From the NCBI GenBank assembly GCA_965223205.1, contig OZ244990.1, positions 2,761,632-2,825,631 of the forward strand: a stretch of 64,000 nt of DNA. Reading direction: 5' to 3'. Positions 481-19,995 of this stretch are shown piece after piece. The DNA is from Candidatus Eiseniibacteriota bacterium (GTDB taxonomy: Bacteria > Eisenbacteria > RBG-16-71-46 > CAVPCR01 > CBDCWB01). The notes below the pieces were generated by a model, which worked only from the letters and a program-made list of their open reading frames with translations, did not search any database and was not told the origin of the DNA. Made by a program: the position numbers and the translations under genes. Every line of letters starts with the position of its first letter. Within the stretch, counting starts at the first letter, position 1.

Positions 481-2319
481 ATGGCTGACTCCCAGGTTTC
501 CGCCCAGTCCAGTTTTTTGGACCGCTCGCACGATGACGACGTCCTGCACCGGCAGCGGCACTCGTTCGCGCACGTGCTGGCCCAGGCCGTGCTGCAACTG
601 CGCCCCGGCACCAAGCTGGGGTTCGGACCGCCCACCGACAACGGCTTTTACTACGACTTCGCGCTGGAGGAGCCTCTGACCCCGGAGGAGTTGCCAGCGA
701 TCGAAAAGCGCATGCGGAAGATCATCGGCGGCAACCAGGAGTTCGAACTCAGGGCCATGGAGGCTGATCAGGCCATTCGCCACCTGGAGGGCGCCGGCGA
801 GCACATGAAGGCAGAGTATGCCCGCGACCTCAAAGAGCGCGGCTTTGCCGAGCTGACCTTCTACAAGAACGGACCTTTCGAGGACATGTGCGAGGGGCCC
901 CACGTTGGCCGCACCAAGGAACTCGACGCCAAGGCGTTCAAGCTCGACTCGATCGCCGGTGCCTACTGGCGGGGTGACGAAAGCCGGCCGATGCTCACCC
1001 GGGTTTATGGCCTGGCGTTTGGCTCGAAAGCCGAGCTGGCCGACTTTTTGGAGAAGCGCCGCCTGGCGCAGGAGCGCGATCACCGCAAGCTCGGGCGCGA
1101 GTTGGACTTCTATACGATCTCCGACGAGGTGGGGCCGGGGCTGGTCCTGTGGATGCCGAACGGGACGGTGGTGCGCGACGAACTCGAGGCGTTGGCCAAA
1201 GAAGTGGAGTTCAAAGCCGGCTACCAGCGCGTCCACACCCCCCACATGGCCAAGGAGTCGCTCTACTACACCTCGGGGCACTTGCCCTACTACAAGGATT
1301 CGATGTACCCGCCGATGGAGTTGGAGGGGGAGTCTCCCTACTACCTGAAGGGCATGAACTGCCCGCACCATCACATCATCTTTGCGGCGCGGCCCCACAG
1401 CTACCGGGAGCTGCCCATCCGGCTCGCCGAGTACGGGGACGTCTATCGCTACGAACTCTCCGGCACCCTGGCCGGGCTCCTCAGGGTGCGTGGCATGGCC
1501 ATGAACGACGCCCATATCTACTGCCGCGAGGATCAACTGCAGGACGAGTTCCACAAAGTCCTGGAGATGTGCCGCACCTTCTACGACATGTTTCGGCTGG
1601 ACTACTGGATGCGCTTTTCCATCCACGACCCCGACGACGCCAAGAAGGGTGACAAGTACTTCGACAATCCCGAGGGCTGGGCATTCTCGGAACGGCTGGT
1701 CCAGGAGATGTTGAACGAGCAAGATGTGCCCTTCCAGGTGGGCAAGGGCGAGGCGGCCTTCTACGGCCCCAAGGTCGACTACCAGATCCAAAACGTCGTC
1801 GGTCGGGAGGAGACCGCCTCCACCAACCAGCTGGACTTCGCCAGCGCCACCAACTTCGACCTGCGCTACAAAGGCGACGACGGGGAGTACCACCGGCCGT
1901 TCATTATCCACCGGGCGCCATTGTCGACCCACGAACGCATGGTGTCGTTTTTGATCGAACACTTCGGCGGGGCGTTTCCGACCTGGATGGCGCCGATTCA
2001 GGTGCGGATCATTCCGGTCGCCGACGCCCACCAGGAGTACGCCGAGAAGCTGGTGGCCGAGCTGCGCGGCGCGCTGTTCCGCGCCGAAGTGGACGCCGGT
2101 CCTGACTCCTTCAACAAGCGCATGCGGAACGCCGTCACCTACAAGATCCCCAATGTTCTGGTGGTCGGGCAGCGTGAAGTCGAGACCCAATCGGTCACCT
2201 GGCGGCGCTATGCCGTCACCGAGCAAACGACTGTCGCCGCAGCCGCCTTCCAGGAGTGCCTAGAAGTCCTGCGGCGGGAGCGCCGGATGGACAATTTTGC
2301 AGACGTGGAGGTGCCATAA
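481..2319 (+). CDS. thrS: Threonyl-tRNA synthetase (short form without the N-terminal TGS domain)
   Basis: RHSFAHVLAQAV, CEGPHV, RDHRKLG, MNCPHH, YGPKVD and IHRA motifs. Confidence 0.98.
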   Translation: MADSQVSAQSSFLDRSHDDDVLHRQRHSFAHVLAQAVLQLRPGTKLGFGPPTDNGFYYDFALEEPLTPEELPAIEKRMRKIIGGNQEFELRAMEADQAIRHLEGAGEHMKAEYARDLKERGFAELTFYKNGPFEDMCEGPHVGRTKELDAKAFKLDSIAGAYWRGDESRPMLTRVYGLAFGSKAELADFLEKRRLAQERDHRKLGRELDFYTISDEVGPGLVLWMPNGTVVRDELEALAKEVEFKAGYQRVHTPHMAKESLYYTSGHLPYYKDSMYPPMELEGESPYYLKGMNCPHHHIIFAARPHSYRELPIRLAEYGDVYRYELSGTLAGLLRVRGMAMNDAHIYCREDQLQDEFHKVLEMCRTFYDMFRLDYWMRFSIHDPDDAKKGDKYFDNPEGWAFSERLVQEMLNEQDVPFQVGKGEAAFYGPKVDYQIQNVVGREETASTNQLDFASATNFDLRYKGDDGEYHRPFIIHRAPLSTHERMVSFLIEHFGGAFPTWMAPIQVRIIPVADAHQEYAEKLVAELRGALFRAEVDAGPDSFNKRMRNAVTYKIPNVLVVGQREVETQSVTWRRYAVTEQTTVAAAAFQECLEVLRRERRMDNFADVEVP

Positions 2320-2361
2320 GCCACGAATTGGGAACAACTTCACCCTTCAAGCGTGGCTTTC

Positions 2362-2391
2362 TTGACACTCGCGCCGGGGCTCTGATAGCGT
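2362..2391 (+). promoter_or_regulatory. Sigma70-type promoter of the nuo operon
   Basis: TTGACA (2362-2367), 18-nt spacer, TAGCGT (2386-2391) with extended -10 TGn. Confidence 0.6.
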
Positions 2392-2399
2392 CCCGGCGC

Positions 2400-2417
2400 T
2401 TGTGCATTTTTTCACAA
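2400..2417. promoter_or_regulatory. Rex-like operator (CRP-like palindrome as alternative)
   Basis: TTGTGCA-TTTT-TTCACAA matches 13 of 14 defined positions of the Rex consensus TTGTGAA-N4-TTCACAA and lies just downstream of the -10 (repressor position). Confidence 0.65.
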
Positions 2418-2460
2418 AGTCGGGTGGCAGCGGGCTGGCTTGAGCCGCGCCGAAAACGGC

Positions 2461-2817
2461 ATGGAACACTTCCTACCGCTCATTTTCCTGATGCTCTTGG
2501 TGGCGGCGTTTGCCGGCGGCACGATCTTTGCGACCCAGTTCGCCGGTCGCTTCAGACCCACCGTCGCTAAACGCACGACCTACGAGTGCGGCGTCTCCCC
2601 GGTGGGAGATGCCCGCGAGCGCGTGCCCGTGCGCTTCTACCTGGTCGCCATGCTGTTCATCATCTTTGATATCGAGGCGACGTTCTTGATCCCCTGGGCT
2701 GTCCTCTTCAGGAAGTTGGGAGTCTTTGGGTTGATCGAGATGGGCGTGTTCATCGGCATGCTGGTCTTGGGTTACATCTACATCTGGCGCCGCGGCGCCT
2801 TCAACTGGAACGCCTGA
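2461..2817 (+). CDS. nuoA: NADH-quinone oxidoreductase subunit A
   Basis: YECG, RFYLVAMLFIIFDIE and YIWRRGAFNW motifs. ATG 2461 preferred over TTG 2440. Confidence 0.96.
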   Translation: MEHFLPLIFLMLLVAAFAGGTIFATQFAGRFRPTVAKRTTYECGVSPVGDARERVPVRFYLVAMLFIIFDIEATFLIPWAVLFRKLGVFGLIEMGVFIGMLVLGYIYIWRRGAFNWNA

Positions 2818-3287
2818 TGGCGCTGACCGGTAGTGAACGCGCCGAGTTCGACCGGGCCTGTGCCCCGTTCCCCGACCGGCGGAGCGGCCTTTTGGGGGCG
2901 CTCTACGTCATCCAGGGGCAGCGCGGCGGCTGGATCGATCGCGATGCCATGCGCGACGTGGCCGAGTACTTTGACCTGCACCCTATGCAGGTCGAGGAAG
3001 TCGTCACTTTCTATACGATGTTCAATACCCAGCCGGTCGGGCGCCACCACCTCCAAGTGTGCCGATCGGTGTCGTGTTTCGTCATGGGGTGTAACGGCAT
3101 AGTCGAGCACCTGCGCCGGAAGCTCGGCATCGAGCCCGGGCAGACCACCGCCGATGGCCGCTTTACGCTGAATACGGTCGAGTGCCTGGGGGCCTGTGGC
3201 ACCGCGCCGGCCATGCAGGTGAACGAGGACTACCACGAGAATCTGACCGTCGAGTCGCTCGACCGCCTCTTGGACGAGCTGCCCTAA
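2817..3287 (+). CDS. nuoE: NADH-quinone oxidoreductase subunit E (2Fe-2S)
   Basis: EEVVTFYTMF, CRSVSC and ECLGAC..AP (four 2Fe-2S cysteines intact). Overlaps nuoA stop (TGATG). Confidence 0.94.
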   Translation: MALTGSERAEFDRACAPFPDRRSGLLGALYVIQGQRGGWIDRDAMRDVAEYFDLHPMQVEEVVTFYTMFNTQPVGRHHLQVCRSVSCFVMGCNGIVEHLRRKLGIEPGQTTADGRFTLNTVECLGACGTAPAMQVNEDYHENLTVESLDRLLDELP

Positions 3288-4297
3288 TGCCGGAGTGGGC
3301 TGGGGTCATCGCCGGTGCAGCGACCAAGGCTCTGGTCGTCTTCGTCGTCCTCTTAACCATCGCCGCTTATACCGTCTATCTGGAACGCAAAGTGCTCGGC
3401 CACATTCAAACGCGCCGCGGCCCTTTGTACGTCGGCTTTCACGGTCTGTTGCAACCGCTGGCCGACGTGGTCAAGCTCCTCACCAAAGAGGACGTCATTC
3501 CCGACGGCGCCGATCGGGGCCTGTTTGCGCTGGCGCCAGCCATCTCGGTGTTTACGGCCCTGGTGGCCATTGCGGTCATTCCGTTCGGCGATCACTGGAC
3601 CCTCTTCGGGCATCGCATCCCCTTGAGTGTCGCTGACTTGAACGTCGGCATTCTTTACATTTTGGCGGTGACGAGCTTGGGGGTCTACGGCCTGATCCTC
3701 GGTGGTTGGTCTTCCAACAACAAGTTCGCGCTGCTGGGTAGCCTGCGCAGCTCGGCGCAGATGATCAGCTACGAGCTGGCGCTCGGGCTGACGTTGATCG
3801 GCCCGATCATGTTGGCGGGTACCCTGAGAATGCGGGGCATCGTCGAAGCGCAAACCGACCTCTGGTTCATCTTCCTGCAGCCCTTGGCGTTCGTCCTCTA
3901 TCTGATCAGCGGCCTAGCCGAAATCAACCGGGTGCCGTTCGACCTCCCGGAGGCTGAGTCAGAGCTGGTAGCCGGTTACCACATCGAATATTCCGGGATG
4001 AAGTTCGCCTTCTTTTTCCTCGGCGAGTACGTCAACATGATCACCGTCGCGGCGATCGCAACAACGTTGTTTCTCGGTGGTTGGCACGGCCCGTTCGGCT
4101 GGAACCACCCGGCCTTGGGGCCGATTTGGTTCTTGGCGAAGGTGGTGGCGGTGATGCTTTTCTTCATCTGGGTGCGTGGCACGCTGCCGCGCTTTCGCTA
4201 CGACCAGCTCATGAACTTTGGGTGGAAGGTGCTGTTGCCCTTGGCGCTTCTCAATATCGTGCTGACCGCCGCCGGCATCGTCCTCTGGGGGGGCTGA
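3287..4297 (+). CDS. nuoH: NADH-quinone oxidoreductase subunit H
   Basis: ERKVLGHIQTRRGP, LLQPLADVVKLLTKE, NRVPFDLPEAESELVAGY, RFRYDQLM. ATG 3287 overlaps nuoE stop (TAATG). Confidence 0.97.
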   Translation: MPEWAGVIAGAATKALVVFVVLLTIAAYTVYLERKVLGHIQTRRGPLYVGFHGLLQPLADVVKLLTKEDVIPDGADRGLFALAPAISVFTALVAIAVIPFGDHWTLFGHRIPLSVADLNVGILYILAVTSLGVYGLILGGWSSNNKFALLGSLRSSAQMISYELALGLTLIGPIMLAGTLRMRGIVEAQTDLWFIFLQPLAFVLYLISGLAEINRVPFDLPEAESELVAGYHIEYSGMKFAFFFLGEYVNMITVAAIATTLFLGGWHGPFGWNHPALGPIWFLAKVVAVMLFFIWVRGTLPRFRYDQLMNFGWKVLLPLALLNIVLTAAGIVLWGG

Positions 4298-17334: not shown

Positions 17335-17417
17335 CCAGAAGGGGAGGCGAGCACCGGCAGGCCGCCCGGGTCGGCCTTGGAATCTTGGAACCCTTGTTGC
17401 AGAACGGGTTTGATGCC

Positions 17418-17423
17418 TATAAT
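17418..17423 (+). promoter_or_regulatory. Consensus -10 element at the head of a long non-coding stretch
   Basis: TATAAT, with TTGTTG 18 nt upstream as a weak -35. Predicted start near 17430. Confidence 0.55.
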
Positions 17424-17430
17424 GCGATAA

Positions 17431-17943
17431 GGTGTGCCCTTCTGCGCGGCGACTGAACGTGAGGTGAGCGGGCGAGGTTGGTTTCTGGGCGCTCCAGGCA
17501 ACCCGCCTCGCTCCCCAGCCCAAAACGGCTCGGGCGGTCGAGGACGCGCAGGGCCCAGATGAGTCAGTTGGATTTTGCTTTGGTGAGAGGTGCCAGGCAC
17601 GCGTTATGGCGCCGATGGTCGCGCAGGACTTGCCCCGGCCCGGCGCCCAGCGCCTCTGAGTAGAATGCCTGCCGGCGCGCCGACCGGTTCAGCCAACGAG
17701 GGCTGGGCTACGGAGGCGGCCGCGAAGAGCAGGTGAGATGCACGACGCGCGTAGTCGATCCGCTAGCGTCAACTTGGATCTGATCGACCGCGCTGGGATG
17801 GCCGTTGCCGTCCCCGCTGGCCTGAGCTAAGAGCAAAGTCCATGACCGCGCTGAGAATAGCCCGGCGCGGTCGCGTCCGGTGCCGTGACTTTTGCGGCGC
17901 CGACAGGAATGGAGCGCATCCATGAAGCTGGGTGCGCTTTTTT
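17431..17943 (+). ncRNA. Candidate large structured non-coding RNA or structured leader (~510 nt), family unassigned
   Basis: Bounded by a promoter and a terminator, no convincing ORF, at least 8 helices found by eye (several with G-U pairs), plus long-range complementarities. See findings. Confidence 0.45.
17913..17943 (+). terminator. Intrinsic terminator or attenuator
   Basis: AGCGCATCCA-TGAAGC-TGGGTGCGCT stem-loop followed by TTTTTGCTTTT, about 20 nt before the next ATG. Confidence 0.75.
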
Positions 17944-17962
17944 GCTTTTGAAAGGTCAACTC

Positions 17963-19069
17963 ATGGCAAGAATCGGACGGCGTGCAGCTGCTTTTCCCAG
18001 GCGGACCCGCGGCACGGAGATCGATGTTGAATTCAAGTTAGATGGTGCCGGTCGGAGCGAGGTCGATAGCCCCTTCGAAGCGCTCAACATGCTGCTCGAG
18101 ATGATGAGCGGCCACGGTCAGATGGATTTGCGTTTGCGCCTCAAGGTCAACGACCGCGCCGACGACACCTACGCGTTGGACGATATGGCCAGCGCGGTGG
18201 CCGAGGCGCTACGGCGCGCGCTTGGCAATCGCCCCAAGGTTCGCCAGTTCGGTACAGAAATCCTGGCCGTCGGTGACACGCTGGTCATGGTGTCCATCGA
18301 TGTAGTGTCGACGCCGGTCTTCCGGTCCAACCTTACCTGGCAGAAGAGCAAGGTGGATGGGGTGCCTACCGCAACGATCGATCGGTTTCTCCGCACGTTT
18401 GTGGATCGATTGGGAGCCAGCCTACATATCCACGAGTTCGCCGGCGACAACGACGCCAACAAGGTGCGCGCCGTCTTTCTGGCCTTGGGAGGCGCTTTGT
18501 GCCAGGCCGCCGAGCCGGTCGATCGGGATGGAGCCCGCGAGGTGGCGGCAGCGATCGACTACGACGACGACGAGGACTACGCTGGTGAACCGCCAGCCGA
18601 GGTGGTGGCGGAGGAGGGTGGTTCTGAAGCGGAGCCCGGCGCGTCCGAGGCCGACTCCGAAGGCCGCCAAAACGGCCGGCGCCGCCGCCGTGGCCGGCGT
18701 GGCGGCCGCCGCCGGCGCGGCCGGGAGGACGCCTCACCCGAGGACGCCGAGCCCGGCGAGGCCGAAGCGGCCCGAGAACCAGTCGAAGCCCACTCGCTGC
18801 ACGAACCCACCGAGAGTTTTCCAGACGACGCTCCCGAGGTGAACGACAGCGATGACCCCGACGACAAGGACGCGCCGCCAGCGCGCGCTCGGCGCCGCCG
18901 CGGCGGACGCGGCCGCGCCCGGGCCCGCCAAACCGGCGGTGAGGGCGCCGTCGACGTGCTCACGGATTCCGAGGGCGACAGCGCTAGCCCGGTTTTGGAC
19001 TTCGTCACCCAAGCCGAGGGTGAATCGGACGCGCGCGCCAGGGGCGGTCGATTCGGGCGCCGGCGCTAG
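17963..19069 (+). CDS. HisB (IGPD)-fold protein lacking the metal ligands, fused to an acidic/Arg-rich low-complexity tail
   Basis: RRTRGTEI.V...LDGAG.S, HG.MDL, LG.R..VRQFG and LHI align with IGPD. HHTVED is replaced by TYALDD and HH..E by ANKVR. The tail has RRRRRGRRGGRRRRGR and D/E runs. GAAAGG RBS. Confidence 0.8.
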   Translation: MARIGRRAAAFPRRTRGTEIDVEFKLDGAGRSEVDSPFEALNMLLEMMSGHGQMDLRLRLKVNDRADDTYALDDMASAVAEALRRALGNRPKVRQFGTEILAVGDTLVMVSIDVVSTPVFRSNLTWQKSKVDGVPTATIDRFLRTFVDRLGASLHIHEFAGDNDANKVRAVFLALGGALCQAAEPVDRDGAREVAAAIDYDDDEDYAGEPPAEVVAEEGGSEAEPGASEADSEGRQNGRRRRRGRRGGRRRRGREDASPEDAEPGEAEAAREPVEAHSLHEPTESFPDDAPEVNDSDDPDDKDAPPARARRRRGGRGRARARQTGGEGAVDVLTDSEGDSASPVLDFVTQAEGESDARARGGRFGRRR

Positions 19070-19077
19070 CCGGCCCC

Positions 19078-19995
19078 ATGTCGGACCCTGACCGCGCGGT
19101 TTTCGACCAACTGCGCGGTCTCACCACGGAGGCGGTGAACCCCCGCTCGCGCGACCTGGATGCGCTGACAACGCGCCAGGTACTGGAGACCATCCATGCC
19201 GAGGACTTGGGCGTTGCCGCGGCGGTGGGTGCTGTGCTCGACGAGGTCGAGCGTGGGGTCGAGCGCGTCGTCGGGGCGCTGGAGAGCGGCGGTCGGCTGA
19301 TCTACGTAGGCGCCGGCACCTCCGGGCGACTGGGGGTGCTCGACGCCGCGGAATGTCCACCTACCTTCGGAACCGATCCAGCCATGGTCGTTGGGGTCAT
19401 CGCCGGCGGTCCGGAGGCGTTGATACGGTCGGCGGAAGGAGTCGAAGACCAACTGGTAGCTGGCGGCGAGGACCTCGCCGCCATGGCGGTGAGCGCCGCC
19501 GATTGTGTCTGCGGCATCGCGGCCTCCAGCCGGACGCCGTACGTGCAGGCGGCGCTGGCCTACGCCCGCTCCCAGGGCGCCTCGACTTTGTTGGTGACCT
19601 GCAACGCCCCGCCCCGCCCGCCGATTGCCGACGTGGTCATTGCCCCCCAGACCGGCCCCGAGGTGGTGATGGGCTCGACCCGTATGAAAGCCGGTACCGC
19701 CACCAAACTTGTCCTGAACATGTTAACCACCGCGGCCATGGTCCGTCTGGGCAAAGTGCACGGCAATCTGATGGTCGACCTCAAGGCCACCTCTCAGAAA
19801 CTTACCGAGCGCTCGAAGCGGGTGCTGATGATGGTGACAGGGCTTGACTACGCGGCGGCGGCGGCGCTCCTGAAGCTTGCCGGTGGCCACGTCAAAACCG
19901 CTATTGTCATGCACCAGGCAGAGTTGTCACCCGAAGCGGCGCGCGCCCGCTTGGCCGCCACGGGTGGTTCAGTGCGCGCTGCCCTGGCGGGCTGA
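19078..19995 (+). CDS. murQ: N-acetylmuramic acid 6-phosphate etherase
   Basis: LTTEAVNPRS, GAGTSGRLGVLDAAECPPTFG, GPEVVMGSTRMKAGTATKLVLNM, NLMVD. Confidence 0.97.
   Translation: MSDPDRAVFDQLRGLTTEAVNPRSRDLDALTTRQVLETIHAEDLGVAAAVGAVLDEVERGVERVVGALESGGRLIYVGAGTSGRLGVLDAAECPPTFGTDPAMVVGVIAGGPEALIRSAEGVEDQLVAGGEDLAAMAVSAADCVCGIAASSRTPYVQAALAYARSQGASTLLVTCNAPPRPPIADVVIAPQTGPEVVMGSTRMKAGTATKLVLNMLTTAAMVRLGKVHGNLMVDLKATSQKLTERSKRVLMMVTGLDYAAAAALLKLAGGHVKTAIVMHQAELSPEAARARLAATGGSVRAALAG

Follow-up and report, generated by a model that had tools for sequence, protein, structure and literature searches.

The gene described here lies in a 64,000-nucleotide stretch of contig OZ244990.1 (assembly GCA_965223205.1, positions 2,761,632 to 2,825,631; hereafter the window) from an uncultured soil-type bacterium of Candidatus Eisenbacteria (Eiseniibacteriota), whose genome of 5.27 Mb is 99.3% complete. 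It occupies positions 17963–19069 on the forward strand, opens with an ATG, ends with a TAG at 19067–19069 and encodes 368 amino acids. The protein consists of a core with the fold of imidazoleglycerol-phosphate dehydratase (IGPD, the hisB product) and a long disordered tail, and is called pseudo-IGPD below. We placed its start at 17963 and not at the in-frame GTG at 17885 because in the alignment the equivalent methionine opens all homologues. The gene stands outside any his operon, as had been claimed, with htrA upstream and murQ downstream. The original prediction, made from the letters of the DNA alone, had seen in it an IGPD-like domain with all metal ligands replaced, an arginine-rich tail resembling that of RNase E, and a possible ribonucleoprotein with an RNA of about 510 nt encoded directly upstream.

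A standard textbook example of a biosynthetic enzyme, IGPD is nearly universal and a target of herbicides. The IGPD-like N-terminal domain was borne out by sequence and by predicted structure alike. Residues 39–179 matched the Pfam IGPD family PF00475 (E 1.1e-25, 90.9 bits), and the closest sequence in the PDB was Arabidopsis IGPD1 (2f1d, E 1.6e-24), with 4mu0 also at about 2e-24. The 13 NCBIfam equivalog models for HisB gave 71–110 bits, well under their cut-offs of 189–443. An AlphaFold2 (AF2) single-chain model built on the family alignment had a predicted local distance difference test score (pLDDT) above 90 over residues ~5–185, and a helix at 188–197. Foldseek superimposed the core on IGPD structures with template-modelling (TM) scores of 0.84–0.92, a root-mean-square deviation of 2.1 Å and 30% identity; for 8qax, 2f1d and 4mu3 TMt was 0.90–0.92, and the next hits after the IGPDs, to ribosomal uS5 and uS9, were weak. 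These results and the ligand columns described below delimit the core as residues 5–185 (17975–18517, + strand). Pseudo-IGPD thus resembles HisB/IGPD/HISN5 (PF00475; Arabidopsis 2f1d and 4mu0, Medicago 8qax and 7oj5) in its fold over ~180 residues, in its N-terminal start and in core length.

IGPD was the sole Pfam domain of the protein; neither a DNA-binding domain nor the RNase E/G domain PF10150 was found. None of the PADLOC anti-phage models matched (0 families), and no paralogue was present in the same genome. A Tat (twin-arginine) or Sec (general secretory) signal at the basic N-terminus was rejected by eye, as this region has no hydrophobic segment and aligns with the N-terminus of canonical HisB. 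The fold is of the S5-domain-2 type, in common with RNase P protein and RNase PH, and this is no evidence for RNA binding.

The functional positions were read in an alignment of the 150 best IGPD superfamily representatives. Thirteen columns were taken. Eight hold the Mn ligands and two the MDEA pair; the others are those of the catalytic residue Glu21, of the substrate-binding Arg99 and of the STKG lysine at the C-terminus. The two-Mn site consists of His47, His73, His74, Glu77, His145, His169, His170 and Glu173 (Arabidopsis numbering). At seven of these columns His or Glu was present in 136–143 of the 150 representatives, and the His145 column held H in 84 and E in 45. All 13 columns are altered in pseudo-IGPD, where the canonical EHHHEDEEHHERK has become GMTYDGDRANRQS, and 12–13 are altered in its family relatives. 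The eight Mn-ligand columns read M, T, Y, D, R, A, N and R, while those of catalytic Glu21, phosphate-binding Arg99 and the STKG lysine read G, Q and S. The four substitutions listed in the original prediction were all present in the residue-by-residue alignment: DHML to NMLL at residues 42–45, canonical HHTxED to TYALDD at 69–74 (18167–18184, + strand), MDEA to VGDT at 103–106, and canonical HHxxE to ANKVR at 165–169 (18455–18469, + strand).

The replacements are themselves conserved. Tyr70, Asp74, Asn166 and Arg169 occupy the positions of the enzyme's Mn ligands His74, Glu77, His170 and Glu173; N166 and R169 are invariant across the family, and so are Y70 and D74 except for an E in P0002. 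Such invariant or near-invariant residues at former metal sites point to a new fixed arrangement, not to decay. The canonical C-terminal PSTKGxL loop is likewise gone, and in its place the alignment and the AF2 model put a conserved linker helix, DR(D/E)GAREIAADVDY (18521–18562, + strand). Although it is IGPD-folded, pseudo-IGPD evidently cannot be an IGPD enzyme: as far as can be read from the alignment it has none of the functional features of a HisB enzyme that we examined; homology and fold place it in the IGPD superfamily.

The check for a canonical hisB elsewhere in the genome, proposed with the original prediction, turned out negative: the pseudo-IGPD open reading frame (ORF) was the sole IGPD match, and it was the pathway that proved to be lost. 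The histidinol dehydrogenase gene hisD was not found in this genome, nor in the other four genomes of the order. Neither hisA nor hisF was found in the genome; a single weak PF00977 match was rejected as either gene, being a Dus-type tRNA-dihydrouridine synthase. With a second IGPD, hisD, hisA and hisF all missing from the genome, pseudo-IGPD is by all appearances the only remnant of a lost histidine biosynthesis and not the paralogue of a functional HisB. The loss extends beyond the order. Twenty-nine of 31 sampled genomes of the class had no hisD, and the two that did also carried a canonical hisB within a his operon. Histidine biosynthesis appears to be absent from most Candidatus Eisenbacteria; we found no paper on histidine auxotrophy in this group. 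The canonical his operons that were seen came from a few families only (f10, f17, f18 and f8).

Behind the core and linker helix, residues 200–368 (18560–19066, + strand; 169 amino acids) form a disordered polyampholyte tail, recognised from the AF2 model, the composition and the charge pattern. The pLDDT was below 50 for residues 200–304 and 313–368. The tail contains 17% R and 25% D+E, with a net charge per residue of –0.08, and its charges are segregated into blocks to a degree (z = 6.8) that none of 500 shuffles equalled. The tail has three Arg blocks, all placed by alignment: Arg/Gly block 1 at residues 239–254 (RRRRRGRRGGRRRRGR; 18677–18724, + strand), Arg/Gly block 2 at 308–322 (RARRRRGGRGRARAR; 18884–18928, + strand) and the basic C-terminus RARGGRFGRRR at 358–368 (19034–19066, + strand). 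The RNase E-like, arginine-rich, charge-blocked disordered tail of the original prediction was therefore recovered in full. The long Arg/Gly motif of block 1 has no second occurrence in the genome.

The same features recur in the family. The tails of the complete members contain 15–22% R and 19–29% D+E, with a charge blockiness z of 1.5–7 and pure Arg/Gly runs of 13–17 residues. A near-identical RRRRRGRRGGRGRRR block is present in every complete member, and all of them end in RRR, RRRR or RRRRR. Near the C-terminus the family alignment showed a conserved short linear motif, VLDF(V/I)T (18992–19009, + strand), which is a candidate docking peptide. Its interpretation as a displaced canonical STKGVL was rejected, since the glycine is not conserved and the GAREIAADVDY helix fills the position of the canonical loop. 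A homology search with a tail as query (P0009 residues 200–511) returned only P0009 itself among the 8000 candidates taken, which were swamped by poly-Arg words, and so carries no information on other carriers. In the tail of the G004 protein (L008/L011) the hexapeptide DRGERV is repeated in tandem about 12 times; the tail therefore grows by repeat expansion. One subfamily (tails of L006, L008 and P0009) has two extra conserved peptides, RPWLRGWEEEP and APDLEPGEPS, and the shorter tail of the window's protein has neither.

The distribution of the family was determined with a profile of the core, which was searched against 1.84 billion protein cluster representatives. It retrieved seven representatives at 218–350 bits, two of them fragments, followed by a gap down to canonical HisB at no more than 127 bits. 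Each of the five genomes that make up one Eisenbacteria order had a single, intact copy of the gene. Among 206 genomes of the phylum these five carried the family type (352–372 bits), 39 carried a lower-scoring IGPD (at most 105 bits), which was canonical hisB where checked, and 162 had no IGPD homologue; the tailed dead form was thus found in none of the other 201. Related loci were also sought: a query with the family alignment found four contigs of Eisenbacteria metagenome-assembled genomes (MAGs), and a query with the single protein found none. Complete members are 368–631 amino acids long, their cores are 45–56% identical to that of the window's protein, and more than 70 core positions are invariant. 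Common to all of them are the dead core, the linker helix DREGAREIAADVDY, an acidic stretch, the RRRRRGRRGGRGRRR block, VLDF(V/I)T and the terminal RRR to RRRRR. The reading frame was intact in every complete sequence recovered, whether from independent genomes or from metagenomes.

In a maximum-likelihood tree the family formed one clade (support 100 in the Shimodaira–Hasegawa-like approximate likelihood-ratio test, SH-aLRT) on a stem of 1.59 substitutions per site, with internal branches of 0.03–0.5. A single episode of functional change with subsequent constraint would be expected to leave such a long stem and short internal branches. Neither Eisenbacteria canonical HisB was the sister group, and basal support was low. 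The ratio of nonsynonymous to synonymous substitution rates (dN/dS) was 0.12–0.15 in the core and 0.31–0.40 in the tail; these values, from three members of one subfamily with dS near saturation, are rough. By this measure, core and tail are both under purifying selection.

As the pathway has been lost in most of the phylum, decaying hisB relics are to be expected, and pseudo-IGPD might be one of them, without function, or else an unusual HisB that is still active. The intact frames, the low dN/dS of the core, the short branches after the long stem and a core modelled at pLDDT above 90 speak against a relic, while the alteration of 13 of 13 functional positions and the absence of the other his genes looked for speak against an active enzyme; we consider either extremely improbable. 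Almost certainly, pseudo-IGPD is a selected, non-catalytic, repurposed IGPD. The repurposing of an enzyme as a non-catalytic scaffold, put forward in the original prediction, is likewise the best reading of the data, as both parts of the protein are conserved and under purifying selection.

Other IGPD-like proteins of about 190–390 amino acids, without the Arg tail, had 5–9 of the 13 functional positions altered (P0022, P0080 and P0124, with P0093; also P0030, P0033, P0055, P0065, P0130 and P0156), and P0022, P0080 and P0124 clustered with P0093 (SH-aLRT 99). Independent tail-less pseudo-IGPDs may therefore exist in other lineages.

The gene order around pseudo-IGPD is conserved as dnaK–(DUF1844)–htrA–spacer–pseudo-IGPD–murQ–sugar ATP-binding cassette (ABC) transporter. 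In the window, murQ, which encodes N-acetylmuramic acid 6-phosphate (MurNAc-6-P) etherase, lies at 19078–19995 on the same (+) strand, 8 nt downstream. Across the window, L012, L014 and the P0010 contig the gene precedes murQ by 8–34 nt on the same strand; in L011 murQ is also downstream, and the adjacency is kept in most relatives. In G001 the gene directly after pseudo-IGPD is that of the substrate-binding protein of the sugar transporter. The 8 nt between the stop codon and the murQ ATG in the window (GCCGGCCC, within 19067–19080) contain no Shine–Dalgarno-like sequence, an arrangement that suggests translational coupling or leader-independent initiation. In the long-read MAG locus L012 (2027–3698), htrA is found in two overlapping frames (2027–3010 and 2856–3698), probably through an assembly frameshift error.

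No terminator-like site was found between pseudo-IGPD and murQ in the window, and with a gap this short co-transcription with the peptidoglycan-recycling genes is likely. It could be argued from this spacing that the gene heads a peptidoglycan-recycling operon (murQ and the sugar ABC transporter) and that its product is an accessory or regulatory part of it, an adaptor or regulator acting on the operon's products or mRNA. However, the whole block from dnaK and htrA to murQ is syntenic across the order, so that the adjacency may reflect inherited order rather than a functional link; moreover, the protein has no site resembling one for a sugar phosphate, the ligands of the substrate phosphate being lost, and no DNA-binding regulator domain. 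A role of this kind seems to us quite unlikely.

Upstream, a spacer of 628 nt (17335–17962, + strand) separates htrA from the gene. It contains a TATAAT at 17419 and, within 17911–17950, a 12-bp GC-rich hairpin (17911–17940) followed by TTTTGCTTTTG, a T-run that stops 12 nt before the ATG, with GAAAGG in between. The stretch between these signals, which includes no credible ORF, was the candidate RNA of the original prediction, for which pseudo-IGPD might be the dedicated protein partner in a ribonucleoprotein. Positions 17428–17950 did fold somewhat better than shuffled sequences (z = –2.89, 0 of 100), and the spacer sequence is unique within the genome. Rfam, however, gave no match at gathering score (the permissive best was E 0.47, with eukaryotic snoRNA and miRNA models). 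The spacer is also not conserved in sequence, length or position: it measures 989, 326, 278 and 249 nt in relatives, and in two relatives an extra gene lies directly upstream of pseudo-IGPD, leaving only 80 nt in L009.

The proposed co-occurrence of the family with the RNA was likewise not seen in the other four genomes of the order. Their spacers showed no similarity to one another by blastn, a 533-nt query with the candidate RNA gave chance-level matches only, and in none of the four was there a hairpin with a T-run upstream of the gene. Because there is no room for a promoter between the T-run and the ATG, the simplest reading of the stretch is that of a lineage-specific 5' leader of the pseudo-IGPD gene. 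Its transcripts must then read through the hairpin, so the hairpin may be an attenuator and not the end of a separate RNA. On this comparison pseudo-IGPD is not the partner of a conserved upstream RNA, and a dedicated ribonucleoprotein with it is very improbable. This failure reduces the appeal of the original finding.

What, then, might a dead IGPD with such a tail do? In the enzyme, Mn bound by residues of different subunits joins trimers into 24-mers of 110 Å, and removal of Mn gives trimers (PMC10978614). That the core has been kept only for its architecture is the most economical way to explain why it stayed so strongly conserved once every active-site residue had been lost, and we propose that it would serve solely as an oligomerisation hub. 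At the sites between subunits where the enzyme binds metal, direct contacts through the invariant Tyr70, Asp74, Asn166 and Arg169 may stand in for the metal bridge. Such a hub would display between 3 and 24 copies of the tail. The poly-Arg blocks of these copies would hold a polyanion, RNA being the likeliest, and self-association and the docking of partners would fall to the acidic blocks and the C-terminal peptide, as in the C-terminal scaffold of RNase E. The Arg-rich charge blocks of Caulobacter RNase E drive condensates that depend on RNA, and polynucleotide phosphorylase (PNPase) docks on the C-terminal EKPRRGWWRR of that enzyme (PMC10412687). By analogy, an oligomeric hub with multivalent tails that bind RNA or another polyanion is our preferred, though still tentative, reading, with a chance that we put at a little short of even.

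The proteins that carry comparable disordered regions in the same genome lean, circumstantially, toward RNA. Such regions, rich in arginine and acidic residues, were found on Rho, on the R3H protein Jag/KhpB and on bS6; the one RNase E/G homologue, an RNase without a scaffold, has one internally. Rho (G000:C1:4125168-4127150, + strand) has an Arg-rich disordered N-terminal region of ~250 amino acids with RSRGGDTR-type repeats ahead of its RNA-binding domain. The Jag/KhpB-type protein (Jag_N + R3H; G000:C1:844433-846136, + strand) has an Arg/Asp-rich disordered C-terminal tail of ~320 amino acids, and bS6 (G000:C1:2647635-2648276, + strand) a charged low-complexity C-terminal extension of ~110 amino acids (RRRRDRDDRDDRRRD...). 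The RNase E/G homologue (G000:C1:3769097-3769906, – strand; L013), at ~530 amino acids, is RNase G-sized and without a C-terminal scaffold, and its N-terminal part carries an acidic and Arg-rich insert (DDDEEESNRGGGRNGRSRGAPRRRRPRRA). An OmpA-like envelope protein (G000:C1:1168546-1170297, – strand) contains YTRDGRDYPREGDT repeated in tandem about ten times; the genome thus has Arg/Asp-rich repeats outside RNA-binding proteins as well.

Several points weigh against an oligomeric, RNA-binding hub. The neighbours of the gene are htrA and a peptidoglycan-recycling cluster, with no RNA-metabolism genes among them. Having lost every metal ligand, pseudo-IGPD may not form the 24-mer. The C-terminal sheet of IGPD, moreover, faces the interior of the shell (PMC10978614), so that a tail of 170–430 amino acids is perhaps incompatible with a closed 24-mer. 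A more specific form of the proposal, in which a metal-independent IGPD oligomer with up to 24 RNase E-like tails would provide in trans the scaffold for degradosome and condensate that is missing from the short RNase G-type enzyme, and VLDF(V/I)T...RRRR would dock a partner in RNA decay, we regard as unlikely.

The polyanion could also be DNA. Pseudo-IGPD would then be a nucleoid-associated protein, a shell or trimer whose protamine-like poly-Arg tails compact or protect DNA in the manner of Dps, or of HU with basic tails. Dps-type shells, symmetric cages with many basic, flexible, polyanion-binding tails, are geometrically comparable to the 110-Å 24-mers of IGPD; the tails of Dps are short and Lys-rich, and its fold is unrelated to that of IGPD. 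Pure Arg/Gly runs of 13–17 residues would bind any polyanion, IGPD enzymes do form shells of this size (PMC10978614), and the stress genes dnaK and htrA stand upstream. On the other hand, Pfam found no DNA-binding domain, the tail is net negative to neutral, unlike protamines or the tails of HU, and similar disordered regions of the genome sit on RNA-handling proteins. We consider DNA condensation rather unlikely.

Among the closest known systems, pseudo-IGPD differs from HisB/IGPD by the missing Mn ligands, catalytic Glu and substrate Arg and Lys, by HisB scores below cut-off, by the lack of a his pathway, and by a helix and a 170–430-residue disordered tail where the enzyme has its PSTKGxL loop. 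With the Caulobacter RNase E scaffold (PMC10412687) it shares a disordered region in which Arg-rich blocks alternate with acidic ones, and a conserved peptide beside a basic C-terminus (VLDF(V/I)T...RRRR here, EKPRRGWWRR there). Unlike RNase E, it has no RNase E/G catalytic domain (in this genome RNase E/G is a separate gene), there is no identity between the motifs, and its tail is anchored on the fold of a metabolic enzyme. The extensions of Rho, Jag/KhpB and bS6 are similarly rich in Arg and Asp/Glu and poor in hydrophobic residues, but they are of the RD/RG-dipeptide or RSRGGDTR-repeat types and belong to proteins with recognised RNA-binding domains, whereas long pure Arg/Gly runs occur in this genome only in pseudo-IGPD, whose folded part has no known nucleic-acid function. 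At most, pseudo-IGPD would function in the manner of an RNase E-type scaffold; it is not itself one.

What is new is a pseudoenzyme that has arisen from IGPD and carries a disordered tail resembling a scaffold; no published mention of an IGPD pseudoenzyme was found. The practical consequence concerns annotation. P0002 bears the source name "imidazoleglycerol-phosphate dehydratase HisB", and on any pseudo-IGPD such a label falsely implies a step of the histidine pathway in these genomes. For the biology of the group, the family is a clean natural case: most of a phylum lost the pathway, yet one protein of it was retained, had every catalytic residue replaced, was joined to a conserved, charge-blocked disordered tail and was then held under purifying selection. 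The family has been kept by a whole order, and pseudo-IGPD therefore has a new job. It offers a testable system for the reuse of a highly symmetric enzyme oligomer as a structural hub, and for RNase E-style scaffolding on a free-standing, non-nuclease protein in a bacterium whose RNase E/G has no scaffold of its own.

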